This document shows, piece after piece, positions 30,073-47,201 of a stretch of DNA of 64,000 nucleotides; within the stretch, counting starts at the first letter, position 1, and each line of letters starts with the position of its first letter. A program made the translations under genes and the position numbers. Source of the DNA: Glycera tridactyla (Eukaryota). The DNA lies in NCBI GenBank assembly GCA_965644265.1, contig OZ286461.1:36270001-36334000 (forward strand). The letters run 5' to 3'. The notes under the pieces are model-generated. The model had not been told where the DNA came from. It was given only the letters and a program-made list of their open reading frames with translations, and searched no databases.

Positions 30073-31016
30073 TGCAATAGATGAATGAAAACGTCGTGGA
30101 CGACTCGCTGGGAAAAAATTACTAGCGAGTAATCAGGGGATTACACCATACATCCGTATCTGAAAGATCTAATTGGATTATATAGGTTGGCTTATGTTTT
30201 TTTCTCCAGACCAGGCATCCAACAACTTGACAAATAACACCCAGCTCAAGTTCACTTGTCTTGCCGACCGAAATGAGCAGTAATTCGTTAGAAGAGAGCA
30301 TAGCTCCGAACGCTCTGTCTGTCAGGACGCCATGATTAATAGCAGACGCTTCGCGTTTTCTGATAGGTCAAGTCTCGGGTCACGTGATGGATGAGCGAGA
30401 GTTGGCGAGATGTAATCACCGAGAGCCGACCAGCTTGTTCTCATAATTTGCTGCGGTATTGCATATGATTGTTTACCGGTGTCCGAGTCATTTATTGCCG
30501 GCTGTGTCTTCGTCCATGTCTATATCTACTGCTGCATTTGTTGAGATGGAAGGCAGATATGTATGATTATTAATAATAAGTGTCTAGTGCAAGCTATGCT
30601 TGCAGCTTTATATCAGCCGCTAGTGGTCTATATCACCAGAATATAGAAGTCCTCGAATGATTCAACATCCGAGTATACGACAATGCCTAGAATGACTAGA
30701 ATGCCCTACAACTCTCATATTGATCGATATAATCAACACAGAAGACAGCATGTATTGATATGAAGATGGTGAACACGAATACCAACCATGGCTGATTGAT
30801 ACGAGCTTGTAGGACACTTTCCATATTGAGAGTACGAAACTTGATGAAATGATCCCTGGCTCCCATATTGGATATATATGAGACGTGCATATGAGATAGA
30901 ATTGATTGAATCACAGTTTTTGCCAGGATCCCGATTTCTGATATCATTTATTGCATGTGTGGTCCTAGCGGCAGAATGGTTATTGCCATTCATTCGACAA
31001 AAAATCACCCTCAAGA

Positions 31017-31022
31017 GTGTAT
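31017..31022. repeat. Left target-site duplication GTGTAT
   Basis: Identical hexamer at 53688-53693, directly outside the right TIR. Confidence 0.95.
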
Positions 31023-31084
31023 AGTAGTATAATGGGCACTTTGCGGGCAGACCAGAAGAATAGAGGCACTATACGGGCAAACAT
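31023..31084 (+). repeat. Left terminal inverted repeat (62 bp)
   Basis: AGTAGTATAATGGGCACTTTGCGGGCAGACCAGAAGAATAGAGGCACTATACGGGCAAACAT is the reverse complement of 53626-53687 with 2 transitions. Confidence 0.96.
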
Positions 31085-31237
31085 TTATATAAATAGGTAT
31101 TTGTAATCATCAGACAGGGAATGGGTAAATGTATATAGGAAGTTCCAGATATATGTAATCAACGTATTAAAGGTAGTTACGTACATTCAACGTGGGTTTT
31201 CATACCTCATTACATATGAGGGCTATCTATTCCATAG

Positions 31238-31311
31238 GGTTAGTTAGCTCAATTGGTTAGAGCGTCATCCTAATGAGTTGAAGGTCACAGGTTCGATTCC
31301 TGTACTGACCA
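31238..31311 (+). tRNA. tRNA-Ile(AAT): tRNA-Ile, anticodon AAT (31272-31274), inside the Polinton
   Basis: Acceptor GGTTAGT/ACTGACC plus discriminator A; D stem GCTC/GAGC; anticodon stem TCATC/GTTGA (one T-T mismatch) with loop CTAATGA; T stem ACAGG/CCTGT with loop TTCGATT; A and B boxes intact; TTTT terminator immediately after. Confidence 0.88.
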
Positions 31312-31537
31312 TTTTATAGTTCTGAATAGTGTGAATAGATAATAATAGATGTGGTGTATATTAGTGACTATTTTACATCTTCATTCTACACCATAGTAGG
31401 GAATCCTATATAGAATCTTGATAAAAAGAGTAATATAATATATCATTCATCCCTAATAGCAAACAATATTAGGAGAATATATTATATGCTTTGATGCAAA
31501 ATAGCATAGGAATATATAATATACCCCATAGGTTACC

Positions 31538-31567
31538 TATAAAAGAGCTGACAATTCATTATCATTC
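31538..31567 (+). promoter_or_regulatory. TATA box (TATAAAAG) and Inr (TCATTC) for the zinc-finger gene
   Basis: TATAAAAG at 31538 and TCATTC at 31562, about 26 nt apart; ATG at 31648. Confidence 0.65.
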
Positions 31568-31647
31568 CACCATATGCAGATTCTCTGAGCACTCTTTACC
31601 TTAGGACTGACACTAGGTATATTTGATTATTACACTTTATCACTACG

Positions 31648-32316
31648 ATGGTTCAGACAAGGAGTCGGAGATGTATTTTATGTTATAGAATGTTCCGTGG
31701 CGGTGCTGGGATCTCAATGCATGAGCGAAGATCACATCATAACATTTTGAACTCAAACATAGAAATCAATCAGGAGTTTATGAACAGGGAAAGTTCATTT
31801 TTATCTCAGTATGAGTCTCAATTGACTCCCACAGACATCAGAACGTGTGTTTTGACCAATATGGACTCTCGAAAACAGATGTATATTGTTGATGTGATAA
31901 TCAAGTGGGAGCTGCTCAAGTTGAATGCTATCGCAGCTATACACCCTGTGACCATGTCATGGAGTATGGATTGGTTCACGTGCTATCGTATAAACCAGAT
32001 AGTGGTAGAGTGCATCGAGGTGTTTGCATGTAACAGCCTCCTGGATTGGGCAGGGGATGACGTCAAAAAAGACACTTTTCTCTCCAGTCAAGTTATGAAT
32101 GACTTAATGACACAAGCAAAAATCAATTCATTCAAATCACAGTTTTCTCATAAGATGCATGAAAAAAGATATCATGCAAGTAGACGAATGATGCAATATC
32201 TGTTCACTTACATAGATATCATTGCTAAAACTTCACATTTCAGGGTGATCTTACTATGTAATTTGTCTAAGGCGATTGGACAACTAGATGAACATTCCTG
32301 TTCCAGTTCATGTTAG
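31648..32316 (+). CDS. 222-aa protein with an N-terminal C2H2 zinc finger and an unknown helical domain
   Basis: CILC-YRM-F-RGGAG-I-SM-H-ERRS-H fits C-x2-C-x3-F-x5-hydrophobic-x2-H-x4-H; upstream TATA/Inr. Confidence 0.75.
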   Translation: MVQTRSRRCILCYRMFRGGAGISMHERRSHHNILNSNIEINQEFMNRESSFLSQYESQLTPTDIRTCVLTNMDSRKQMYIVDVIIKWELLKLNAIAAIHPVTMSWSMDWFTCYRINQIVVECIEVFACNSLLDWAGDDVKKDTFLSSQVMNDLMTQAKINSFKSQFSHKMHEKRYHASRRMMQYLFTYIDIIAKTSHFRVILLCNLSKAIGQLDEHSCSSSC

Positions 32317-32427
32317 AATTCGACAAACAAGCTGTTTACTATACAATCAAACAAACAAGCTGTTTGCTATACAAGACTGAACTTTGACAGTGGGGTATAT
32401 TATAGCTGTTGACAGAATTTAGCATAC

Positions 32428-32463
32428 TATATAAACTGACTTCGATTTTGTATTCAATCATTT
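32428..32463 (+). promoter_or_regulatory. TATA box (TATATAAA) and Inr-like TCATTT
   Basis: TATA at 32428, TCATTT at 32458, ATG at 32487. Confidence 0.6.
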
Positions 32464-32486
32464 AACTCTGAGATCTCTAACCTGTG

Positions 32487-33929
32487 ATGGATAAATCAGG
32501 GTTGTATATACCACAGTCGTTCACTCTCACGGATATGGATACATCACAGAGGATTGAGCAGGAGTTGTATACAGCTACAACATCGATACATGATGCATCA
32601 GACGTTACACAAACATCTAACGGACAGTCAGACAGTGACTCTAGATCTGATAGTTCTGTTTCATTTCTCACACCCAGTTTTGATTCAGAGGAGCTGCAGT
32701 CTTTGCTCGAGTTCATGCCAGATTCACTACCTGATAATCTGTTCAACAGCTTTCATCCACCATCTGATACGTTTGACACGAGCTATCAGATGCTAGATGA
32801 GTTGCTAGAGGCACAGGAATCACATACCTTCAAAGTAGGGGATGTAGAGCAATATGAGATCATATCTGATGATGAAGATAGCACTCCTCTCATGACATTA
32901 GCGGTTGCTAAGACTACAAATTCACGATGTAGTATAGAGACCAGTCATGTCATTAGTGATGATTCAAATCAGTCTGACTGTCAGATCGTCCAGACTGAAC
33001 AACTAGTGGGTGGTTTAAAACCTATGGACGTGAACCAAGAATCATCTAATGTTACATATGCTGGTGACTATGATTTGTGTTCATTGATATCATCTTGTTC
33101 AGCGAATACTGCTCAACAGAAGGTGTTGTTGAATGAGATGAATGATGTGAACACCAGTGTGCAGGATATATTCGCTCTAGCTAGCGATAACAAGATATCC
33201 AATGTCGAGCCAGAACAATCCACCTCCACAAAGGGTAGTAAAAGGTTGCGACAGGCTGATAATGAAGATCAGAAAGACCACAAAAGGTTCCATCATGATG
33301 ATGGCAAGTATTCGGAACCCATCACAAAACTAGCTTTAGATATCGTCATGGCACCATTTTTTGACTTGAATTATAATCCGGAGGAAAGATCAATCATGAC
33401 GATGGCTAAACATTTGAATTCTCTTCAGTCTATGCTGCCTGAGTTGGGTTATTTGTACTCAACTCTGAAGACATCTAGAAAACCTTTTTATACGTATTCA
33501 ATCAAAAGTCACCTGAAAACACATCTCACCGACATGATAATTGATTTATGTGTACAAGAGGCTGGCAGCAAGACCGATGTGATCAAAATCATAGATGTAT
33601 TTGATGTCATATTAGAGAAGATTATCAAAGACAGTGATTTCATTCAGCCAAGCTGCATGTACGATTTTGAGGCTGATACCACCTCGTATCGTCAGCTGAT
33701 AGCCGATAGGGTCATGGTGGCGGTCTCTATCGATCTGACAGATATTCAAGACAGGGAATCAAAAAAATATGACATCATTGCAGTAAACAATGATGTTACG
33801 GTATTTATGTATTGGGCCATCCATAAGTTGGCTAGCAGATCACACACTCGTTCAGCACTGAAGCAACTGGTCGCGTACGAAGTCGCTCGGTCAGTAAAGA
33901 TGTGCGAAGACGAGCGTGACAGATCATAA
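32487..33929 (+). CDS. 480-aa hypothetical protein: acidic Ser/Asp-rich N half, basic patch (KRLRQ...KRFHH), helical C-terminal domain
   Basis: Long ORF inside the element, with TATA upstream and AATAAA near 34080 downstream. Confidence 0.8.
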   Translation: MDKSGLYIPQSFTLTDMDTSQRIEQELYTATTSIHDASDVTQTSNGQSDSDSRSDSSVSFLTPSFDSEELQSLLEFMPDSLPDNLFNSFHPPSDTFDTSYQMLDELLEAQESHTFKVGDVEQYEIISDDEDSTPLMTLAVAKTTNSRCSIETSHVISDDSNQSDCQIVQTEQLVGGLKPMDVNQESSNVTYAGDYDLCSLISSCSANTAQQKVLLNEMNDVNTSVQDIFALASDNKISNVEPEQSTSTKGSKRLRQADNEDQKDHKRFHHDDGKYSEPITKLALDIVMAPFFDLNYNPEERSIMTMAKHLNSLQSMLPELGYLYSTLKTSRKPFYTYSIKSHLKTHLTDMIIDLCVQEAGSKTDVIKIIDVFDVILEKIIKDSDFIQPSCMYDFEADTTSYRQLIADRVMVAVSIDLTDIQDRESKKYDIIAVNNDVTVFMYWAIHKLASRSHTRSALKQLVAYEVARSVKMCEDERDRS

Positions 33930-35122
33930 TCAGATCTGAGCATACTATATAGATCGCTATTTATATATATTCTTATTCCCGTGTACAGATATATATAATT
34001 CCATGTAGTGTGATTATTCATATTGAGATTATAATTATAGATATATCACGTAAATATATATTTCACTAGTATACTTCACAATAAATTGCGATATAGGAGA
34101 CAGTCACAACTGAATGACGAAGACATAAAATACTAGATGCATCATCAGGATTTCTGTGGGTGATAGAGGTATGTATAACCCTAAGTTTCATTACATTAGT
34201 TAGGGATTGGAGAGTAATCTATGATTACTTACTATGTCATGGAGTATAGATAGCTCATAGAATACAACCGCCGCAAACGACGCCGAACTGGCGTGAAATT
34301 GACATATTCCGCGTTCTGAAGTGAAATATACAGTGAAACTCGGCGTGATCACATTTTCTGTTCTGTCAGAGATATCCAAAATGTCTGTCTGCAAGCTTCA
34401 TTCCAATCTGATGGGAATTCACAATGCTAGGGCGAAAAAAACGTACCCGCCACGAATAAGCTTGACAGACTTTAGACTTGCATGATAAATCTGAATATCC
34501 CCCAAAAAACACACGATCAGTTAATACTCAAAGAGTGAAAGTAAATTGAATGGATCTCTAGGTAAACCACAGTTCCAGCTATCATGATGTTAAACTTCAT
34601 CATATTAATCAGTAAACAAACAATTATCAGCAGGAATGGAGTTAGGTGATATTATATGATATACAAACCTGATTGATAATTTATTAATCCCTTTCACTTC
34701 CATTGTAGATTCGAAGAATTATTTCCCACTACAATTCAAGGCGTGAGAGCAAGCGTACTCCACATCCATTGCTGGTGAGTGTATAAGTGATTCTGAACTG
34801 TGTCCCACAAACATTCCACGTCACATCTACCAACATACCTACACCCACTCCTCTCATATCACCATCCTCATCAGCATCATAGATACAAATCCAAATTTTG
34901 AAATTAACAGTTTGTGATGATTTGTTGCATGAAGATATGTATACGAACAATATCATGAAGATGATCGGTATCAACGTTCGACTCTGGAGTTATGATACAT
35001 CATCTCAGTAGAATTCACACCATTTAAGAATGTCTAATAATATCAATCTACATAAGCATTAAATGGATGAATCATAGATCAAATAATTTCTAATACATGT
35101 ATGATTGTATTTGCAGGTTACC

Positions 35123-36694
35123 ATGGCGAACAGTGATTCGAGTGATTCACAACAATCGGATCGTAAGTCACCTATCCCTTCAAGCTCATACAACACTCAG
35201 TTAGAGTCCTCGACATCATCTAGATCTCATAGCAGGCGAGCTATCAAACGAGCAAGTACGCAAGGGAAATCAACTGAATGGACGTCCAAGGTCCGTCGGA
35301 TGAATGCCAGATCAAATCCAGATACTTTATTACCTCATCAACGTTTGGATGATGTAAGCATCAATAACCGTCAGTACTCTTTGATCAGACATACTGTCAG
35401 ACCATTCATAAATGGTCTAGGTGTGAGCATATCATTCGATTTGAATTTTTCGAGTGAAATGATCCACTCCAATCTCAGGCTAATGGACATGAAAGATACT
35501 CTAGAGTCAATATTTGATGAAATACTTACGACACTAACACAAAATACACAGTCTGAAGCCCTTGTTAGGATTGTGCTTTTCCAACAGGAGTTGGACTCTC
35601 CCATGGTGGTTCCTCTGAGGAAACTGAAACTAATGAATTCATCGCTCATACTGAAAGTACTGAGAGATTGTAACATTGATCATAGAGTGTTGGTTAATTG
35701 TGAACACATTCCAGTAATAGAGGATTATTTCAAATGTGCGATATTCGTCATTTCAAACACGTGTTCAGATAGATACTGGCGTTCGCCGGATGAACAGGTG
35801 ATTGAAAATGCAGAGTCAGCTTTGTTTGTATATCATACAAAGCAACCCAATAATACATATCACTACGATGCAGTCACCAATGTTAAAGCCTTTTTTGGTA
35901 AAGGCAGCTATTGCGATGTATGTCACACACCCTATAAGGATGTACACCAATGTAAGAAGAAATGTCAGGTGTGTCAAACATCTCAGTGTTTCAGAGAACA
36001 AAAGACATGTCAAGTGAGAGAGAGAACATGTTCAGATTGTAACATGGTATGTAAGACACAGTTTTGTTTTGAGGAACATAAAAAACTGAAAGGAGTGAGG
36101 AAGAAAATATCTCAGTGTCTTAAATGGTGGAAATGTCTTTCGTGTTGCAGGGTGGTATATCGTGCAAGGAGTAAGAGATCACATAATTGTGGTGAATTCC
36201 TGTGCAAGAATTGTGGATGCTATTCCAGAGACTATCATCAATGCACCATGAGAGCAGTGACAAAGAAGGAGACGGCATCCAAAAATGATATCCACATGTA
36301 TATAGCCTACGATATTGAGACATGTCAGGATGAGATACAGCAATGTTCGCAAGGATACACACCGAGAGATAATTGTGAAGCATGCTCAGATTCTTCCTTC
36401 AAGTGTAATGCATGCAGTCGATGTGTCAACTGCGCTAGCATGGAATGTGGGAGTTCGGTACACAGACCAAACCTCGTAGTAGGTGAGAAATGGTGTACAT
36501 TCTGTAGAAACATTCCATTCGGAGAAAGTACGTTCTGTTCACATTGTGGCGACAGATGCAAGAAGTGCAACAAAAGGATACCTAACATGGGACAATTTGC
36601 TTATAGATGTCCCCCATGTGATAATAACATTTGCGGAAGGAGAAGGGTTATATTCCACGGACTCAATGTGTCACACATTTTTGTGACTGGTTGA
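35123..36694 (+). CDS. polB: pPolB N-terminal segment (terminal-protein/OTU-like region, Cys-rich zinc clusters, Exo I); joins the next ORF across a 1-nt frameshift
   Basis: Kozak accATGg; HYDAVTNVKAFFG..YC..C; many CxxC pairs; AYDIET (Exo I); HRPNLVV; RRVIFHG. Confidence 0.9.
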   Translation: MANSDSSDSQQSDRKSPIPSSSYNTQLESSTSSRSHSRRAIKRASTQGKSTEWTSKVRRMNARSNPDTLLPHQRLDDVSINNRQYSLIRHTVRPFINGLGVSISFDLNFSSEMIHSNLRLMDMKDTLESIFDEILTTLTQNTQSEALVRIVLFQQELDSPMVVPLRKLKLMNSSLILKVLRDCNIDHRVLVNCEHIPVIEDYFKCAIFVISNTCSDRYWRSPDEQVIENAESALFVYHTKQPNNTYHYDAVTNVKAFFGKGSYCDVCHTPYKDVHQCKKKCQVCQTSQCFREQKTCQVRERTCSDCNMVCKTQFCFEEHKKLKGVRKKISQCLKWWKCLSCCRVVYRARSKRSHNCGEFLCKNCGCYSRDYHQCTMRAVTKKETASKNDIHMYIAYDIETCQDEIQQCSQGYTPRDNCEACSDSSFKCNACSRCVNCASMECGSSVHRPNLVVGEKWCTFCRNIPFGESTFCSHCGDRCKKCNKRIPNMGQFAYRCPPCDNNICGRRRVIFHGLNVSHIFVTG

Positions 36695-39336
36695 TCGTTA
36701 GAAATCATACTCATGCCACTGTAACAGCTCACAATTCAAGCAGGTATGATTCATATTTTCTACTGAAAGAGATGTTATCTATGAAGATCAAGGTTACCAA
36801 TATCATTGTCAATGCCGGTCAGATCCTATTCTTTAAGGTGAACTCTCCATACAGTAATCGTTTTGTAGACTCAGCCAGATTTTTACCAGTGAGTTTAGCT
36901 AAACTCACCGGAATGTTCCATATGAGAGGAGATGGAGACGTAAGCGAGTCCATTTCCAAAGGCTTCTTCCCTCATTTATTCAACACCACAGAAAGGATAA
37001 ATGATAACTATGTAGGTGTCATACCCCCCAAGTCTGACTTTATGCTTGAAAACATGACCCCAGATCAAAGGTCCAAGTTTGAGACATGGTATCAGGAGAG
37101 AGTGAGCGAGGACTATGTATTTGATTTGAAGAAGGAGTTGATCAGATATTGTATAAATGATGTTACGATTCTCCGAAAGGCAGTTATGCAGTTTGATGAA
37201 ATCATATATAGTCTAGCAGATATCCATCCATTCAGGGACTGTTTCACATTAGCCTCTCTCGCAATGAGAATATATAGGAAGAAACACCTGACTGAAGTAT
37301 ATGATGTGAAGCTCGAGCGTAAGCACGATGGCCAAGTGATTGGAAGTGAGGCTTTGGTAAGAGACGGTGTCACCAAGGTACAAATTGATAATTGCATTCA
37401 GGTAGTAGACAATTCATTTGGTTACAGGATTCTCTCCAAGTTCTTTAAGACTTCTTTCGTAGGTGTGTCTCCTCCAAACGGTTATAGATATAGTATAAAG
37501 GCATTCAGTAAAAAGGCAGTTGCATGGCTAGAATATCTGTCGCAGACTCGTAACATCAATATACTTCATGCTTCCAATTTTCAGGAAATAATGATCAGAA
37601 AACCAGACGGTTCTGTCATGCATGTAGATGGTTATCACCCAGGTCAAAGCACTCCTCTCATCAATCAAATTGTTGAGCATGTACCGGTAGATGCAATAGT
37701 ATTTCTATACCATGGATGTTTGTATCATGGGTGTATTCAATGCTATCCTGAGAATAGAGAAAGAATCCTGTTCAAAGCATCCGGTCGAAGCTATCAAGAG
37801 TGTTATGTCAAGACCATCAAAGATCAAGAACTCCTATCTTCGATGGGAGTAAAAGTAGAGATAATGTGGGAGCACGATCACGATGCTCTGATTCTCACAG
37901 ACTCTCTTGCTAAAGACCTTCATCATAACGTTCATTTCGAGCCCCCACTGAATCCTAGAGGGGCTTTTTTTGGCGGGAGAGTGGAAAATATAAGACTCAC
38001 GTGGAACAAGGGGGAAAATGGTAAGATACTATCATATTATGACTTTTGTTCATTATATCCATGGGCAATGAAATATAGACCTATGCCATTATTCAATCCC
38101 ACTGTTATAACAAAGGACTTCACACGTATTGAAGACTATTTCGGACTAGCTAAGGTTCTGGTTGTTCCACCAAAAAAGCTGTTCTATCCAGTGTTACCTT
38201 ATAGAGCACGTGGTAAGCTCGTGTTTACTCTATGTGCAAATTGTGCTCATAACAATAATCAAAAAGACTCTTGCATATGCTCAGAAAAAGAAAGAACTCT
38301 GAAAGGAGTCTACGTCACAGAGGAGCTGAAATTAGCGGTTGAGAACGGGTATCGTATTTCCAAGTATTTTGAAGTATATCATTATGAGCATAATTCGGAT
38401 AACTATCATGATCTATTCCGCGATCGCAATTCAAATATATTCGAGGACTATATCAACCAGTTCTTGAAGATCAAGACAGAAAGTTCAGGCTATCCAACAG
38501 AGTGTGAAAGTGACGAGGATTGCAGAAAATACATTAACGATTACTATTTGAAGGAGGGCATCCATTTAGATCCGAATAACATTGAAAATAACCCCTCCAA
38601 ACGTGCAATTGCGAAGCTTATGTTAAATGCGTTGTTCGGCAAATACGCCCAACGTATACATAGAAAACAGACTAAATTCATCACATCTGACTATCCACAA
38701 GAGTTATTGAACATTCTCTCAGATAGCAAGATTGAAATAAGTGATTTCAATATCATTTCCAGTGATATATTGTCACTGGAATACACTGAAACAAAGGATT
38801 GCATGAAATCACCCGCAGTGAACAATGTTGTGATCGCGGCTTTCATTACAGCATATGGAAGAATGAAGCTGTATGAAGCATTGAAAAAGACACAGGAAAG
38901 CTGTCTATATATGGATACAGATTCAGTAGTATTTGAGCACGATCCGAAAAAATGTGTCCTTCCTCTTGGTAAGTTCCTAGGCGATCTCACATCCGAGATT
39001 CCAGACAAGGAACATATCAATGAATTTGTGAGCACGGGTCCCAAGAGCTACTCGTATGTTCTATCAAATGGGGTAAAGATTCTCAAGTATAAAGGATTCT
39101 CACTTAACTCAAGAGCAGAATCTATTCTCAACATCGGATCAATGAAGGGTCTACTTAGAACCCATGATGAAAGGGGAGTTAGTGCAAACTCAATCAGTGT
39201 CCCAAACACTCTCATTAGACGTCACAAAAAGAATTTATCCATCACCACCTCCTTTGATAAAATGAAAGACTATACATTCACAGTGGATAAGAGGAGAGTG
39301 CTCTCAGACTTCTCAACATTACCATTCGGCTATTGA
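36631..39336 (+). CDS. polB: Protein-primed family B DNA polymerase, main segment, with an inserted Vsr-like nuclease domain
   Basis: HNSSRYD (Exo II), YCINDV (Exo III), YYDFCSLYP (motif A), KLMLNALFGK (motif B), YMDTDS (motif C), C-terminal DKRRV...TLPFGY. The insert carries VDGY and HGCLYHGC. Confidence 0.97.
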   Translation: MRKEKGYIPRTQCVTHFCDWLIVRNHTHATVTAHNSSRYDSYFLLKEMLSMKIKVTNIIVNAGQILFFKVNSPYSNRFVDSARFLPVSLAKLTGMFHMRGDGDVSESISKGFFPHLFNTTERINDNYVGVIPPKSDFMLENMTPDQRSKFETWYQERVSEDYVFDLKKELIRYCINDVTILRKAVMQFDEIIYSLADIHPFRDCFTLASLAMRIYRKKHLTEVYDVKLERKHDGQVIGSEALVRDGVTKVQIDNCIQVVDNSFGYRILSKFFKTSFVGVSPPNGYRYSIKAFSKKAVAWLEYLSQTRNINILHASNFQEIMIRKPDGSVMHVDGYHPGQSTPLINQIVEHVPVDAIVFLYHGCLYHGCIQCYPENRERILFKASGRSYQECYVKTIKDQELLSSMGVKVEIMWEHDHDALILTDSLAKDLHHNVHFEPPLNPRGAFFGGRVENIRLTWNKGENGKILSYYDFCSLYPWAMKYRPMPLFNPTVITKDFTRIEDYFGLAKVLVVPPKKLFYPVLPYRARGKLVFTLCANCAHNNNQKDSCICSEKERTLKGVYVTEELKLAVENGYRISKYFEVYHYEHNSDNYHDLFRDRNSNIFEDYINQFLKIKTESSGYPTECESDEDCRKYINDYYLKEGIHLDPNNIENNPSKRAIAKLMLNALFGKYAQRIHRKQTKFITSDYPQELLNILSDSKIEISDFNIISSDILSLEYTETKDCMKSPAVNNVVIAAFITAYGRMKLYEALKKTQESCLYMDTDSVVFEHDPKKCVLPLGKFLGDLTSEIPDKEHINEFVSTGPKSYSYVLSNGVKILKYKGFSLNSRAESILNIGSMKGLLRTHDERGVSANSISVPNTLIRRHKKNLSITTSFDKMKDYTFTVDKRRVLSDFSTLPFGY

Positions 39337-39448
39337 GTTTAGAAAGCCAGCAAGTTTATATGTCAACTTGTTAGTAAATATAGAGACGTCTCGCCATAGC
39401 TCACTGATTCCATATAGTATATCCATAGTGTATGAGTATTTCATACTG

Positions 39449-39604
39449 CACTCGAACCTATAAAGACCGCTTTCTATCGCAACAAAAAGTGGTCTTTATA
39501 GGCAGGTGATCTTTATAGAGAGGTCATCTACTGTTGAAAATACTACCATGGTCTATCTCAGGGTGGTCTTTAGAGAGAGGTGGTCTTTAGAACAGCTTCG
39601 ACTG
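39449..39604. mobile_element. Host MITE (12900 family) inserted into the Polinton downstream of pol
   Basis: CACTCGAACC...AAAGACCGC...AAAAAGTGGTCTTTATAGG...TTCGACTG|TA, sharing blocks with 12900-13135. Confidence 0.75.
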
Positions 39605-40068: not shown

Positions 40069-43000
40069 TCAGTCAAATAGTCATTTGAACATGTGAATAA
40101 ATACCTTCCAAGTGAGACCACCTCCAATGTGAAACCGCTTTTAACTTCATGTCCATACGTAAAACAAGATGAGGAACAATCTGCTTGGGTTGGATTCATG
40201 ATGGAACTGACGGTTTCTTCACAAATAGTCGCCAAAGTGAGCATTCGAGATGTTTGTGAATCTACTTGAGCCATGAGAACTGATGGTTTCTTCACCTCCG
40301 ATGCGAGACCGCTTTTAACTTCATATCAATANNNNNNNNNNNNNNNNNNNNNNNNNNNNNNNNNNNNNNNNNNNNNNNNNNNNNNNNNNNNNNNNNNNNN
40401 NNNNNNNNNNNNNNNNNNNNNNNNNNNNNNNNNNNNNNNNNNNNNNNNNNNNNNNNNNNNNNNNNNNNNNNNNNNNNNNNNNNNNNNNNNNNNNNNNNNN
40501 NNNNNNNNNNNNNNNNNNNNNNNNNNNNNNNNNNNNNNNNNNNNNNNNNNNNNNNNNNNNNNNNNNNNNNNNNNNNNNNNNNNNNNNNNNNNNNNNNNNN
40601 NNNNNNNNNNNNNNNNNNNNNNNNNNNNNNNNNNNNNNNNNNNNNACCACCTCCATTGTGAGACCACTTTTGACTTCATGTCTATACGTAAAACAAGACG
40701 ATGAACACGCTGATGGGGTCGGATTTGTGATAGAAGTGACGGTTTCTTCACAAAGTGAACATTCCAATATGTGAATAAATACCTGTCTGTGTGAGACCAC
40801 CTCCAATGTGAGACCGCTTTTGGCTTCATGTCTATACGTAAAACAAGATGATGAACACGCTGATGGGGTCGGATTTGTGATAGAAGTGACGGTTTCTTCA
40901 CAAAGTGAACATTCCAACATGTGAATAAATACCTGTCTGTGTGAGATCACCTCCAATGTGAGACCGCTTTTGGCTCCATGTCTATACGTAAAACAAGATG
41001 ATGAACACGCTGATGGGGTCGGATTTGTGATAGAAGTGACGGTTTCTTCACAAAGTGAACATTCCAACATGTGAATAAATACCTGTCTGTGTGAGATCAC
41101 CTCCAATTTGAGACCGCTTTTGGCTTCATGTCTATACGTAAAACAAGATGATGAACACGCTGATGGGGTCGGATTTGTGATAGAACTGAAGGTTTCTTCA
41201 CAAATAGTCGCCAAAGTGAGCACTAGATAGGAATGTGTATCTACTCGAGCCGCATATTTGACTTTATCTAGCCTACTTATTCTAGCCGAGCACAGGTTCG
41301 AATCCACTCGGATATTTCCGTTAAGACAGGAGTAGATACACATTCCTATCTAATGCTCACTTTGATGGCTATTTGTGGAGAAACCGTCAGTTCTATCACG
41401 AATCCGACTTGATCAGCGTATTCAGCATCATGTTTTACGTTTAGATATGAAGTTTGATGACTATAATCGTTAAAGCGGTCTCACATTGGAGGTGGTCTCG
41501 AGAGGTATTTATTCGCATATTAGACTGTATCAAACCGACTGTACGATCGGCTACATTCGACTACTTCGAGTCGAGCACAGGTTCGGACAGACTCGGCTAT
41601 TTCCGTTACTGCTCGAGTAGATACACAAATGTGGAATGCTCACTTTGGCGACTATTCATGAAGAAACCGTCAGTTCTATCACAAATCCGACCCCAGCAGC
41701 GTGTTCATCGTCTTGTTTTACGTATAGACATGAAGTTTGAAGACTATAATCATCAAAGTGGTCTCACATTGGAGGTGGTCTCGAGAGCTATTTATACGTA
41801 TATTTGACTGTATCTAGCCTACTTATTCTAGCCGAGCACAAGTTTGGATACACTCGGCTATCTCCGTCACGACACGAGTAGATATACATTCCTATCGAAT
41901 GCTGACTTTGATGACAATTTGTGAAGAGACCGTCAGTTCTATCACAAATCCAACCCCAGCAGCGTGTTCATCGTCTTGTTTTACGTATAGACACGAAGTT
42001 TGGAGACTATATTCATCAAAGCGGTCTCACATTGGAGGTGGTCTCGAGAGGTATTTATACGTATATTTGACTGTATCAAGCCGAGGGCAGGTTCGGGTAC
42101 ACTCGGCTCTGGTGACACAGTAACCTGCTACGAGTGTGAGTCTTGGGCAGGGGTAGATCCGGGGAGGGTGATGTGTGTTGCCCAGCAGCAGCAGCTGCAT
42201 CGTGACAGCATGCATATCTCCTCAAGCCGTGACGGAAATAACCGATCCTGCACTCGGCTTGCATACAGTCAAATATGTGGATAAATATCTCCCGAGACCA
42301 CCTCCAATGTGAGACCACTTTCAGCGAATATAGTCATCAAACTTCGTATCTATACGTAAAACATGACGCTGAATACGCTGATCAAGTCGGATTCGTGATA
42401 GAACTGACGGTTTCTTCACAAATAGTCGCCAAAGTGAGCACTAGATAGGAATGTGTATCTACTCGAGCCGTGACGAAAATAGCCGAGTGAATCCGAACCT
42501 GCACTCGGCCTGAAATAGTCGAGTGTAGCCGATCGTGCGTTCGGTTTGCTACAGTCGAATATGCGAATAAATACCTCTAGAGACCACCTCCAATGTGAGA
42601 CCGCTTTTAGTGAATATCGTCGTCAAACTTCGTATCTATACGTAAAACAAGACGATGAACATGCTGATGGGGTCGGATTTGTGATAGAAGTGACGGTTTC
42701 TTCACAAATAGTCATCAAAGTGAGCATTCGATAGGAATGTGTATCTACTCGAGCTGTGACGGAAATAGCCGAGTGTACCCGATCCTGTGTACAAGTAGAT
42801 ACACAAACGTGGAATGCTCACTTTGAAGACTATTTGTGAAGCAATCGTCAGTTCTATCACGAATCCGGCCCCATCAGTGTATTCATCGTCTTGTTTACGT
42901 AGAGATAAGAAGTTAAAAGCGGTCTCACATTGGAGGTGGTCTCACTGAGAGAGGTATTTATTCACATCTTCGAATGCCTATTCGTGAAGAAACCGTCAGT

Positions 43001-43602
43001 TCTATCGCGAATCCGACTCGACCAGCGAATTCACCAGCTTGTTTTACGTATAGATACGAAGCCAAAATCGGTCTCACATTGGAGGTGGTCTCAGTTAGAG
43101 AGGTATTTATTCACATGTTCGAATAACTATTTGTGGAGAAACCGTCAGTCCTATCGCGAATCTTGTTTTACGTACAGATATGAAATTAAAAGCGGTCTCG
43201 CATTGGAGGTGGTCTCTCTTGGAATGTATTTATTTGACTGACTGACTGACTGACTGACTGACTGACTGACTGACTGACTGACTTATTCACATGTTCAAAT
43301 GACTATTTGTGAAGAATCCTACTTGACCAGCGTATTCACCATCTTGTTTTACATACAGATATCAAGCCAAAAGCGGTCTCAAATTGGAGGTGGTCTCACT
43401 TGAAAGGTGAAGAAACCGTCAGTTCCATCATGAATCCAACCCGAGCAGATTGTTCCTCATCTTGTTTTACGTATGGACATGAAGTTAAAAGCGGTTTCAC
43501 ATTGGAGGTGGTCTCACTTGGAAGGTATTTATTCACATGTTCAAATGACTATTTGACTGACTATTTGACTGACTGACTGACTGACTGACTGACTGACTGA
43601 CT
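40069..43602. repeat. Nested inverted (fold-back) array of ~150-bp units with (GACT)n tracts
   Basis: 40069-40222 is the reverse complement of 43407-43560 (one mismatch seen). Exact 150-bp period at 40681/40831/40981/41131. Unit orientation flips near 41290, 42160 and 42770. Confidence 0.9.
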
Positions 43603-43811: not shown

Positions 43812-45149
43812 TTACGATGCCGGAAACACGTTCCTGCCTTCGTCGATCGACATGACGGCGGGAAACATGGCGTACAGGACGACGACGATGCTTTCCGTCA
43901 GGTTCGACGCGAAGCGCAGGGTCAGTCTAGTGGTGCCCGTCTGGCGTTGCTGCGTGAACTCGTTCTGAAGCATGTGCGGCATGATGTCGAAGACGATGAA
44001 ACAATAGCCGTTCTTGTACTCGTCTCTCCCGATCATCGGGAATTGCCCGGTTTGCTCATTTTTTGCGTGAGCCAGCGTCGAATAGGCTTCCAGATATCGG
44101 TCGTTTTCGAAATCCGTGTTGATCGGTCTGTTCGGCACGCTCTGTCCGTTCACCTCGAAAGAAATCGAGGAGAGCTCGAAATGCTTGAACACGAACGGGT
44201 TCTTGTTGTAGGCGCCGTTGAAGTTCGCTTGGGGTACCATGCCCACGATCAATCTCGTTGGCGTCCTGCCGTTGAACGGGTTGTCGTACTGGTCGCCGCT
44301 GGTTCCGTCTTTGATGATCCACGTCTTGGTATCGCATCTCGTGTAGGGATACATGGCGGGTCGGACCGCCAGCGCTTCGCCGTGAGCCAGAAATACGGAC
44401 GGCGAAACGTTCAGCATGGGCACCCTGACGAAGGCGTTGGTGATCTCGACCTTGTAGTTCCCGGTCGCGCTACTGCAGATCAGTCTGAAGGCGTCCGTGC
44501 TCTGGCGGAATTTCAGTTGGAGTTGACACGCGTTCAACAGATATCGTCCGCACTTGAACAGGTCCAGGTGGATGCGACCGATCAGCTCGATTTCGGTCGA
44601 CTCGCTCGTCCTCTCGGCTCGTTTTGCCAGCGCGACATTGACGTTGGTGGCGCTCGAGAGCTCCGCTGCGGTGCGTTTCGGAACGGCATCGTCCAACGTT
44701 CCCGCCTCCTCTTTGTCGAACATGCCCATGCTCAGCGGTGCGATGGTTTCCGAGGCGTTGGCGTTCAGTAGAACGTCCATCATGGACTTGTAGGGATAAT
44801 TCGACTGACATTCCACCATCTTTTGCGAAATGTAGCATTCGACGGCGCCGAAGAGGGACGAGATCGGCATGTTCGCCAGTGCCACCCCGTCCGTCGACTC
44901 GAGATCGCTACCGTCGCTCTTGACCTTCAGATGCAGGTTCATGCGTTCCAAATCGATGTACATGCGCTGGTTTCCCGTGATGCTGAACTCCAGCGGCGAA
45001 TAGCTGTTTATGGCCGCCACCGGACCGTAGTCGACGTGATTTCGCGACTCGATCGAGACCTCTCGCGGCGGGAGGTTGAACAGTGCCATGGACGACACGT
45101 ATCCCCAATCTCGGTCCGTGGAGTCGGGCGGGCTCTCGGACGTGTCCAT
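43812..45149 (-). CDS. Major capsid protein (double jelly-roll), 445 aa
   Basis: LFNLPPREVSIE, NYPYKSMMDVLL, ELIGRIHLDLF...RYLLN, FNGRTPTRLIVGMV, NPFVFKHF and LTLRFASNL match Polinton MCP blocks. Confidence 0.95.
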   Translation of the reverse strand: MDTSESPPDSTDRDWGYVSSMALFNLPPREVSIESRNHVDYGPVAAINSYSPLEFSITGNQRMYIDLERMNLHLKVKSDGSDLESTDGVALANMPISSLFGAVECYISQKMVECQSNYPYKSMMDVLLNANASETIAPLSMGMFDKEEAGTLDDAVPKRTAAELSSATNVNVALAKRAERTSESTEIELIGRIHLDLFKCGRYLLNACQLQLKFRQSTDAFRLICSSATGNYKVEITNAFVRVPMLNVSPSVFLAHGEALAVRPAMYPYTRCDTKTWIIKDGTSGDQYDNPFNGRTPTRLIVGMVPQANFNGAYNKNPFVFKHFELSSISFEVNGQSVPNRPINTDFENDRYLEAYSTLAHAKNEQTGQFPMIGRDEYKNGYCFIVFDIMPHMLQNEFTQQRQTGTTRLTLRFASNLTESIVVVLYAMFPAVMSIDEGRNVFPAS

Positions 45150-45158
45150 GATTTTTTT

Positions 45159-45452
45159 CTAAAATGCTTCTCGTAGCGAGCCTTTTTTCGACGAACGTTT
45201 GACTGCGGTTCGGGGTCTCTTCGCGCGCTTCTTATGCCTTTTGACGCCGGCGGACGACGGTCGTTTCACCCCCAATAGCGATTGCGATTGTTCCACCGCG
45301 GCTTGAGCGGGAGATATGGCGACCAGCGATTTCACAGTCGTCGTGGGTTTTACCGGTTTGCTCTCGCGAAGAAGTTTGAAGGACTTGGTGTAGGGTACCC
45401 GACCGCGAGCCATTTGCACAAAGTGTTCCTTGACCTTCGCGTGCTCAGCCAT
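45159..45452 (-). CDS. Small basic core-like protein, 97 aa
   Basis: HFVQMARG, ISPAQAAVEQ and a Lys/Arg-rich tail; packed between the penton and MCP genes. Confidence 0.75.
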   Translation of the reverse strand: MAEHAKVKEHFVQMARGRVPYTKSFKLLRESKPVKPTTTVKSLVAISPAQAAVEQSQSLLGVKRPSSAGVKRHKKRAKRPRTAVKRSSKKGSLREAF

Positions 45453-45915
45453 CCTTCTTCAGAATCAGTTTCAGATAGCAGAAACGTCGAATGCACGGCG
45501 AGTTCGAGTGCGTGGGTTGATCGAGATCCCGGTTGACGAACCGCACTTTGATACGATCCACGTAATTCTTCACGACTCTGACGTAATGATCTTCGGGAAA
45601 GTCGATTTGGTAGTTCTTATAGACTTTGCTCGTGGTTCTCATCGGAAGATCGCTCGGTATCAGGAGGGTGAGCAGCGGGAGTTGCGCGTTTCCGACCTGC
45701 GTCTCTTCTATAAAGTCGCACAGCACCAGTAGCGGTAATCGGAGGCTCTTGACGGACTTGTTTGCCGGAAACAGGTACGAGAAGTACGCGCTGGCGATTC
45801 GACATTTCCAGCTGCCGTCCAAAAACAAAGGTTGCGGTAAGACGTACGTAAACTCGGACAGCTCTTCTCCGTCGTCACTCCCGGAAATACCCGGTACAAT
45901 CACAATCTGATCCAT
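45445..45915 (-). CDS. Minor capsid (penton) protein, only 156 aa
   Basis: FTYVLPQPLFLDGSWK, LLVLCDFIEETQVGNAQLPLL and YVRVVKNYVDRIKV match the two conserved halves of Polinton pentons. Confidence 0.85.
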   Translation of the reverse strand: MDQIVIVPGISGSDDGEELSEFTYVLPQPLFLDGSWKCRIASAYFSYLFPANKSVKSLRLPLLVLCDFIEETQVGNAQLPLLTLLIPSDLPMRTTSKVYKNYQIDFPEDHYVRVVKNYVDRIKVRFVNRDLDQPTHSNSPCIRRFCYLKLILKKDG

Positions 45916-46102
45916 GGGCTAGTGCGTGTTCCAGTCTTTTGACTCTGGCGCGAAAGCGGATGGAATCGAGAAGCTGCGAGCTAATGTCTCTCGCGTCTCT
46001 AGCCTCGTGCGGGTACTCTTCCAGATATCTGAATTCGACGAAATGATCGAAAGCCACTTTCAACTGTGTGGAACGTGTGTGACCTCCTTCGCGTCTATCC
46101 AT
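45875..46102 (-). CDS. Possible 75-aa hypothetical protein bridging integrase and penton
   Basis: Fills the only gap longer than 100 nt in an otherwise tightly packed operon; amphipathic pattern; no recognised motif. Confidence 0.3.
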   Translation of the reverse strand: MDRREGGHTRSTQLKVAFDHFVEFRYLEEYPHEARDARDISSQLLDSIRFRARVKRLEHALAHGSDCDCTGYFRE

Positions 46103-47199
46103 GAGTTGAACTTGTTGTGGAAGCCTTTCCACTTGACGTACACCTGGTCTCTTCCATCTAGCACGCGTCTCTTGATGATCTTCTCTATGTCGTATAGTCG
46201 ATCCGCGTCCGCCGTGTCACGCACTGCCTGTAGTTCGCTTTCGTAGAAACTACCTTGCAACCGCTCGCCGTCTTGATCTCTTATGAAGTACACGGACATG
46301 TCTTGCCTCTTTATGACCGAGTCTACGTAGTAGATTTCTCTGGTCCATCTCTCCGCGTACTCTCCGTACATTTTCTCGCGTCGCTTGGTGATTCTGACCG
46401 ATTGACCCACACCGTATCTCGGCTTCTTGTTGACGTAGCTCGCATAATTCCTGGGCTTCCGTTTTTCGCGACTGACGTATTGTGCGTATCTGACTTCGTG
46501 TTCGTTGTCGGCGTTCACTTCGTTCGGCGTACAACCGATGGAGGTGTGATTGGTGTCGTTGTATCCTCGAACGAAATCCTGTAGCTTGTCTACGTAACGC
46601 TCTGTGCGGTTCTCCTTCATGTATTTTTTAATGCGCTTCTTGAGCGATCTCCACACTCTTTCGATGAATGCGCATTGCGCCGTGCCGTGAGAGAAGTAGT
46701 GACCTACGTCCTTCGATTTCAAGTACTGCGAAAACTTGCTGTTGGTGAACTCGCTGCCCATGTCTGTCCTCAGACTGTTGCATTTCGCTCCCGCCTCTTT
46801 CAACACCGAGTCGAACGCCTCTATCACGTTGTCGGCCGTCTTTGTTCGGAGCGGTCTCACGTACAGCTTTTTACTGAATATGCAAATTACACCCAATAGG
46901 TATCCGGTGTTGGAATTCCGTTTTCGCAACTTCTGATAATCGCACAGATCCGCTTCCCATATGTCGTTTATCCCGTTGGATATGACGTTCGACTTTGGGA
47001 ACTTGAACCGCGTCTCCTTGTTCAGCGTATAACTGTCCCGGGACTGTAACCACGTTTTCACGTCGTTCAGCGTCATCTCGAACTTGGTGTTTTTTCTCAC
47101 GGCTTTGTACACCTTGTCCGGCGATTGAAAACTACCGGCGGAGCGCGGATCGCTATAGTGTCTTTCGAGATATTCTTCGCCCTTTTTTGTTAGGACCAT
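46060..47199 (-). CDS. Retroviral-type (rve) integrase with C-terminal chromodomain, 379 aa
   Basis: YSDPRSAGSF, WEADL (D), LRTDMGSEF (D), FIERVWRSLK (E). Chromodomain YDIEKII...VYVKWKGFHNKFNSWI. Confidence 0.97.
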   Translation of the reverse strand: MVLTKKGEEYLERHYSDPRSAGSFQSPDKVYKAVRKNTKFEMTLNDVKTWLQSRDSYTLNKETRFKFPKSNVISNGINDIWEADLCDYQKLRKRNSNTGYLLGVICIFSKKLYVRPLRTKTADNVIEAFDSVLKEAGAKCNSLRTDMGSEFTNSKFSQYLKSKDVGHYFSHGTAQCAFIERVWRSLKKRIKKYMKENRTERYVDKLQDFVRGYNDTNHTSIGCTPNEVNADNEHEVRYAQYVSREKRKPRNYASYVNKKPRYGVGQSVRITKRREKMYGEYAERWTREIYYVDSVIKRQDMSVYFIRDQDGERLQGSFYESELQAVRDTADADRLYDIEKIIKRRVLDGRDQVYVKWKGFHNKFNSWIDAKEVTHVPHS

Positions 47200-47201
47200 C
47201 G

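Follow-up and report, generated by a model that had tools for sequence, protein, structure and literature searches.

Why does a Polinton in the genome of Glycera tridactyla carry a tRNA gene just inside one of its ends? The locus lies within a 64-kb window (the whole 64,000-nt stretch of DNA analyzed here), in which the original prediction had placed a tRNA-Ile(AAT) gene 215 bp inside the left terminus of the element. This placement was borne out (31238 − 31023 = 215). The data presented below confirm that the gene is real; it is probably a cargo of the element on which selection has acted as on a tRNA, and it resides in a decaying copy. Its parts are the following.

31238–31311, forward strand: tRNA-Ile(AAT) gene, 74 nt, intron-less, with no encoded CCA, its last base being the discriminator A73 (ARAGORN, Rfam)
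31245–31256, forward strand: A box (internal Pol III promoter), containing A15 at 31252 (box scan)
31265–31281, forward strand: anticodon arm; stem 4/5, with a T-T opposition at 31268:31278 (standard positions 30:40), anticodon AAT at 31272–31274 and G37 at 31275
31290–31300, forward strand: B box, perfect (box scan)
31312–31315, forward strand: T4 (TTTT) Pol III terminator, immediately 3′ of A73 (sequence)

This gene was the sole tRNA called by ARAGORN in the window (tRNA-Ile(aat), 31238–31311, forward strand), and also the sole Rfam match. It scored 67.4 bits with RF00005 (E 1.7e-12; model positions 1–71, complete), against a gathering threshold of 29 bits and above the 60.3–61.8 bits of four eukaryote-type Ile(AAT) genes. 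Pairing is complete in the acceptor (7/7, with one U-G pair), D (4/4) and T (5/5) stems and reaches 4/5 in the anticodon stem. The A and B boxes were assigned by their consensus; in a pattern scan of the 64-kb window, an A box followed by a B box occurred at a single site, the tRNA gene. Together with the T4 stretch, these boxes make up a full type-2 Pol III gene lying within the terminal inverted repeats (TIRs) of the element. The tRNA strand folded better than 199 of 200 shuffled sequences (z −2.9). Better folding than shuffles was also seen in two of the seven flanking stretches tested (31150–31237, z −2.45; 31400–31520, z −2.74). Over the 60–110 nt downstream of the gene, folding did not exceed that of shuffled sequences (z +0.85, +0.93 and +0.27), and no hairpin of the TMER type was present. 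The sequence shows neither a tail nor an encoded CCA, and no target-site duplication (TSD) borders the tRNA gene itself, the longest flanking repeat being 4 nt, the commonest chance length. Thus, ARAGORN, the Rfam score, the box scan and the sequence itself agree with the full cloverleaf, A and B boxes, T4 terminator and lack of a SINE-like tail initially described. The description of AT-rich stems that still pair was equally accurate, the GC content being 45% versus 59–61% in the four eukaryote-type references. The Ile identity elements A(I)34-A35-U36 and A73, as given in the accessible part of PMC9976931, are present in the gene.

The tRNA gene starts 153 bp inside the left TIR of an element of 22.7 kb (31023–53687). 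The features of the element, from left to right, are as follows.

31017–31022, no strand: left TSD, GTGTAT (sequence)
31023–31084, forward strand: left TIR, 62 bp, beginning AGTAGT (96.8% identical to 53687–53626)
31085–31095, forward strand: TATA-like stretch immediately inside the left TIR (sequence)
31648–32316, forward strand: ORF of 222 aa with no Pfam match; a weak C2H2 zinc-finger-like signal (Atlas 0.86) is a lead only
32487–33929, forward strand: ORF of 480 aa with no Pfam match
35123–39336, forward strand: protein-primed DNA polymerase B (PolB; PF03175, E 5.6e-49), interrupted by a change of frame near 36.67 kb
43812–45149, reverse strand: major capsid protein, double-jelly-roll-like (Atlas 0.98; clusters with PF21738 on 14–30% of members)
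46060–47199, reverse strand: rve integrase (PF00665, E 2.1e-10) with a chromodomain (Pfam)
47827–48240, reverse strand: TBP-like ORF, truncated in its second repeat by an in-frame stop (Pfam)
49089–49799, reverse strand: packaging-type ATPase with a P-loop (Pfam; Pox_A32, E 0.006, below cut-off)
49796–50104, reverse strand: Bcl-2-like ORF (E 3.5e-4, below the Pfam cut-off)
50616–50942, reverse strand: PC4-like ORF (Pfam)
53626–53687, reverse strand: right TIR, ending ACTACT (inverted-repeat match)
53688–53693, no strand: right TSD, GTGTAT (sequence)

The TIRs are identical at 60 of 62 positions (two mismatches), and the 6-bp TSD GTGTAT is found on both sides. TIRs with a 6-bp TSD, a PF03175 polymerase, an rve integrase and a double-jelly-roll capsid assign the element to the Polinton/Maverick (adintovirus) group, the capsid being identified by its Atlas feature score with a recognition value of 2281, slightly under the tool's mark of 2300. 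The clusters resembling the capsid are 86–100% eukaryotic, with arthropods or nematodes the commonest source, and the best 150 relatives of the polymerase are 31–47% identical to it, one named relative coming from a beetle; the library searched thus includes no close member of its family. From the capsid look-alikes, the beetle relative and the repeat-rich context, the host of the element is most likely an animal. The candidate packaging ATPase matched an ORF of locus L044 in a tblastn search (E 7e-4). No protease family, and thus no adenain cysteine protease, was found in the scanned ORFs of this copy; since the capsid gene adjoins a 3.5-kb repeat block and a gap of 314 N, it is possible that adenain was lost as the copy decayed. 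Scans for related loci with the polymerase or the capsid alone returned none, and an alignment-based scan returned ten distant polymerase-bearing viral loci, several of them partial, with a tRNA in none of the ten. The 44 ORFs in the flanks of the element gave no informative Pfam match. The TBP-like and PC4-like ORFs share the element with the tRNA gene; TBP and PC4 both act in Pol III transcription. At the right end, two tandem paralogous ORFs on the reverse strand (51560–52516 and 52727–53515) are 41% identical over about 245 aa and have no Pfam match. In the left flank, positions 8899–10406 hold a 63-bp tandem array (about 16 copies among those listed) with open frames and a repetitive, sub-threshold SAM-domain Pfam match.

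Several features indicate that this copy is decaying. PolB is spread over two frames near 36.67 kb and the TBP-like ORF has an internal stop, two coding breaks that may be assembly errors in a draft with twelve N gaps in the window. The element also contains nested host repeats, at 34.3, 39.5 and 40.1–43.6 kb. The first (34291–34475) is a fragment of a high-copy host repeat, matched by dozens of contigs of public runs X1 and X2 (described below) that continue into other sequence. The second (39449–39589), another nested host insertion, is common to the left host flank (12900–13112, 79–84% identity). The third (40069–43560) is a 3.5-kb block of direct and inverted repeats of about 150–300 bp, lying between the converging polymerase and capsid genes; it is flanked by arms of 154 bp with 99% complementarity and has (GACT)n at its end. 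This block may be either a foldback-like insertion or a repeat region specific to the element. One of its units has a perfect B-box-like hairpin at 41295, with no A box. The capsid/integrase module (43812–50104) has 51% GC and a CpG observed/expected ratio of 1.43, versus 39% and 0.63 in the left polymerase module (31023–39336), a contrast suggesting that the element is chimeric or that the two modules differ in their history of methylation. From the two TIR mismatches, the private divergence of the copy was estimated at 1.6% (0.2–5.8%), which predicts about 1.2 (0.14–4.3) changes per 74 nt.

The tRNA itself departs from known genes far more than that. A relaxed motif in which the stems were left free retrieved 41 loci of the Ile(AAT) type, 27 from viruses and 14 from a genome collection. 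The nearest are eukaryote-type and identical to the Polinton tRNA at 55–58 of 74 positions, and none of the 41 exceeds 58/74. Among the 198 tRNAs in these 41 loci, which had been selected by an Ile-AAT motif, Ile(AAT) was the best isotype (58/74) and the next isotypes reached 53, so that a shift of the anticodon from another isotype was weakly rejected. Four of the references (L031, L032, L035 and L038), tRNA-Ile(AAT) genes of eukaryote type, come from short contigs catalogued as bacterial, where they are probable contaminants; L031 presumably resembles the usual animal tRNA-Ile(AAT) gene. A search of the phage collection gave no full-length close relative among the 15 matches listed out of 1120 records; these 15 are 77–85% identical and labelled Met, Arg, Asn/Lys or left without a name. 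An Ile motif of the G37 type had no match in viral contigs and one partial, unrelated match in metagenome contigs (L001), which was rejected as a relative, there being no tRNA call and no similarity to the element outside the motif region.

Relative to the nearest eukaryote-type Ile(AAT) genes, the Polinton tRNA shows 16–19 differences, with five or six two-sided compensatory pairs. The 18 differences from L031 comprise six such pairs, two one-sided changes that remain paired, one broken pair and three loop changes (positions 15, 37 and 60). Eighteen changes greatly exceed the 1.2 or so expected from the TIRs (P 2e-7 even at the upper bound of divergence), hence the copy's own decay cannot explain them. 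Two of the compensatory pairs are G-C to C-G swaps and therefore not products of deamination. The pattern was compared with 50,000 random placements of the changes, limited to the 15 pairs left free by the search motif and using as references three of the four nearest loci, L031, L038 and L032 (the L035 tRNA is the same as that of L038). Under uniform placement, pairing and compensation as observed were both reached in 2, 2 and 2 of the 50,000 trials, respectively; with tenfold hypermutation of CpG the figures were 7, 247 and 1. Neutral or CpG-driven decay thus rarely reproduces five or six two-sided pairs. As random placement almost never matches the observed pairing, the cloverleaf was kept through a long divergence. 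The original prediction had invoked compensatory evolution inside the element. Compensation has statistical backing; that it took place inside the element is what we infer, as any two working tRNAs show compensation and the references are not host genes.

We consider it somewhat better than an even bet that the tRNA is a cargo of the Polinton, transcribed by host Pol III and topping up Ile decoding. The element would have acquired a eukaryotic tRNA-Ile(AAT) at a remote date and lodged it in the spacer, free of coding sequence, that follows the left TIR; there its base composition would have shifted towards A+T, with the cloverleaf maintained by selection. TFIIIC, TFIIIB and Pol III of the host would transcribe the gene in the nucleus, and the transcript would pass through RNase P, RNase Z, CCA addition and A34-to-I editing to yield a tRNA with an IAU anticodon. 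Host IleRS would then charge it through I34-A35-U36 and A73, and the RNA would join the pool reading AUU and AUC during synthesis of capsid and polymerase. The transcription and maturation steps are standard Pol III and tRNA biology. Ile is the third commonest residue encoded by the element (323 of 4638 codons, 7.0%). ATT and ATC account for 213 of these 323 codons and for 21 of 22 in the capsid gene, where ATC alone makes 19 of 22. Over the whole element ATC is used 127 times, ATA 110 times and ATT, the match of the unedited anticodon, only 86 times, making it the rarest. Codon usage lends the translation role weak support. Among the roles initially proposed (translation support, a TMER-like RNA and a Pol III insulator), translation support fits best: the TMER model lacks its 3′ hairpin, and a pure insulator needs no paired acceptor and anticodon stems. 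A remnant of an integration site was rejected, the gene being whole and located 153 bp inside the TIR, away from the junction.

In a different view the gene is a passenger. A tRNA-Ile isodecoder would have diverged in the host genome and then entered the element, by capture or by insertion, with no benefit to the latter. The compensation test is silent on where selection acted, this copy has already taken up at least three host repeats, and host tRNA loci are named as a possible source of capture in the available portion of PMC12220804. Contigs from three public runs (X1, X2 and X3), of uncertain kind and patchy coverage, bear on this point; they were aligned to 30500–39400 at 80% likeness. 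A 199-nt contig of X2 matches 31238–31319 with five differences in 82 nt (94% identity), the match starting exactly at the 5′ end of the tRNA; the 110 letters upstream do not align, which places the X2 variant behind a different flank. This contig shows that the variant tRNA exists in more than one version. A diverged sister element whose spacer has changed would account for it, and a free host locus would do so just as well. Against the second option, X2 also contains diverged pieces of the element itself (92–94% like 34851–35131, plus some cover of the TIR bin). The tRNA piece diverges by 6.1% and the other X2 pieces by 7.2%, so the former is not clearly more conserved. Among the patchy contigs of the three runs, none of those listed joins TIR and tRNA. 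X1 has element contigs that differ by about 2% (30 differences in 1446 letters over the seven pieces listed; 17 of 30 bins covered); it lacks cover of the tRNA bin and X3 has none, holes that carry no weight with contigs this patchy. Also at odds with a passenger is the make-up of the gene: Ile(AAT) genes of the cellular type have conserved anticodon stems (10 of 40 references share that of L031 exactly) and are GC-rich, unlike the Polinton tRNA, which differs from this stem at 7 of 10 positions. The divergent stem and the 45% GC would, indirectly, lean towards an origin in the element rather than towards an ordinary cellular isodecoder. An insertion should further contend with the lack of a TSD at the gene. 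Overall, we regard a passenger as unlikely, if still worth serious attention.

Three features of the tRNA are not compensated. The T-T opposition in the anticodon stem (31268:31278) and G37 (31275) were already noted in the original prediction; an A15-C48 tertiary pair had been missed. The latter replaces a G-C found in 21 of the 23 references whose D arm is in register, and occurs in none of the 23. An unpaired 30:40 is found in 0 of 41 references and G37 in 1 of 41. This sole other G37 Ile(AAT) among the 41 motif matches lies at 2980–3055 of L025, in a tRNA cluster of a 151-kb viral contig, and also has C31-G39. At the decay rate derived from the TIRs, the probability of at least one oddity is 0.70 and that of at least three is 0.12 at the point estimate and up to 0.8. 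One to three of A15-C48, U30-U40 and G37 may therefore reflect decay after insertion, in which case this particular copy may have little function or none. According to the accessible text of PMC9976931, I34 and A73 are of importance, and bacterial-type IleRS and the cytosolic IleRS of mammals use t6A37 as a determinant, which other eukaryal-type enzymes do not. Since most eukaryal-type enzymes do not depend on t6A37, G37 is no necessary obstacle to charging outside mammals. In human mitochondrial tRNA-Ile, the A37G change harms processing, stability and charging (PMC7826259, as far as available).

The same three deviations from working Ile(AAT) genes could point to an RNA that takes no part in translation: tRNA-shaped and poorly charged, like the vtRNAs of gammaherpesviruses, and serving as a decoy or as a source of fragments. 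The vtRNAs of MHV68 are likewise encoded at the left end and are not aminoacylated (PMC4337559, part of the text). Such a role would leave unexplained the retention of the AAT anticodon and of A73, as well as a T4 that abuts A73 with no hairpin downstream (z +0.27 to +0.93), and the oddities themselves are within reach of decay, as calculated above. This reading appears decidedly unlikely.

A further proposal gives the oddities a function in translation. The rebuilt anticodon arm, with three swapped pairs and G37 in place of the t6A site, would evade a host defence that cuts tRNAs and so sustain translation in an active nuclear virus; the tRNA and the TBP-like and PC4-like genes would then form a small module for taking over Pol III. 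Phage tRNAs have been proposed to evade anticodon nucleases (PMC10264068, accessible part), and SAMD9 cuts tRNA-Phe (PMC10246899, likewise in part); the literature searched yielded no Ile-specific animal nuclease. Changes in the Polinton tRNA are enriched in the anticodon arm (8 of 17 positions versus 10 of 57 elsewhere; Fisher p 0.02), much as the phage case would have it, but the excess is gone when the anticodon stem is set against the acceptor stem alone (7/10 versus 5/14 changed, p 0.21). We view nuclease escape, module included, as improbable. If true, it would imply an Ile-directed anticodon-nuclease defence in a host of the invertebrate type.

tRNA genes (tDNAs) have chromatin barrier activity, and TFIIIC bound at the end of the element might shield it against host silencing. 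The location of the gene, inside the TIR and upstream of the first ORF, the perfect B box and the encoded TBP-like and PC4-like proteins would suit such a barrier. For this purpose the boxes suffice and paired stems are needless, yet the acceptor and anticodon stems hold five of the six compensatory pairs. Moreover, the right end has no site with A and B boxes. Barrier activity could only be a side effect, and as the explanation of the gene it is very improbable.

tRNA-headed SINEs are common in animals and other repeats are nested in the element, but a SINE head, which the original prediction had named as one of two findings that would overturn it, or a retro-copied tRNA pseudogene, is scarcely credible for a gene with no tail, encoded CCA or TSD, with T4 immediately after A73, near-complete stem pairing, a single copy in 64 kb and an X2 bin depth of 1.4 as compared with about 2,180 at the nested repeat of 34.3–34.5 kb (depth being a hint and not a copy number).

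As a cargo, the tRNA has precedents in elements of protists. The available portion of PMC12220804 reports 558 tRNAs in 8300 genomes of Polinton-like viruses (PLVs) and virophages, with 14 tRNA-Ile rows in Table S12, and virophages are also said to carry tRNA genes in the accessible part of PMC6905037. The claim that tRNA genes are not a standard Polinton feature thus stands for animal Polintons in the literature searched and fails for the PLVs and virophages of protists. The likeness extends to a single tRNA gene in a dsDNA element of about 20 kb encoding integrase and capsid (PMC12220804, in part). In that source, the hosts in rows 316–401 and in the tRNA-Ile rows are all protists (dinoflagellate, algae, oomycetes, Trichomonas, rhizarians and amoebae), and within its supplementary file "Metazoa" appears only in Table S9. 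Codon compensation or a counter to tRNA depletion is proposed there for these tRNAs, without test. The passages of PMC12220804 and PMC6905037 that are available contain no analysis of stems or of position 37 to set beside that of the Polinton tRNA.

With adintoviruses and animal Polintons, as described in the accessible part of PMC8502044, the element shares a PF03175-type pPolB, an rve integrase, a double-jelly-roll capsid, a candidate packaging ATPase, inverted terminal repeats and a Bcl2-like gene; it differs in that no adenain was found in the Glycera copy and in the 31–47% identity of its polymerase relatives. In the available text of that paper, tRNA is mentioned once, in the legend of a figure on MELD viruses, whose replicases are different. 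Bracoviruses are endogenous DNA viruses of animals with 3–7 predicted tRNA genes, but they are domesticated, segmented viruses of wasps, with particles devoid of a replication module, and unrelated to Polintons (PMC2646287, part of the text). The TMER/vtRNA genes of MHV68 are also type-2 Pol III genes of tRNA-like form at the left end of a genome. There are eight of them, with 3′ miRNA hairpins and products that are not aminoacylated, whereas the Polinton has one gene with no hairpin and with canonical anticodon and discriminator (PMC4337559, in part). The literature searched, mostly non-subscription full text and exclusive of the figures and supplements of PMC8502044, yielded no account of tRNA genes in animal Polintons. 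The tRNA described here is marked by an A34 Ile anticodon and a rebuilt anticodon arm.

It is debated whether the Polintons of animals are transposons lying dormant or viruses that have a lytic phase. A selected tRNA pays only if the element at times strains or contests host translation; the gene described here would accordingly be indirect evidence of a viral phase. A Pol III RNA some 18 positions away from the canonical type of tRNA-Ile would also provide a marker by which tRNA-seq could detect the awakening of the element. Finally, G37, if common to sister copies, would constitute a natural test of whether IleRS and the ribosome of an invertebrate accept an Ile tRNA that lacks t6A37.
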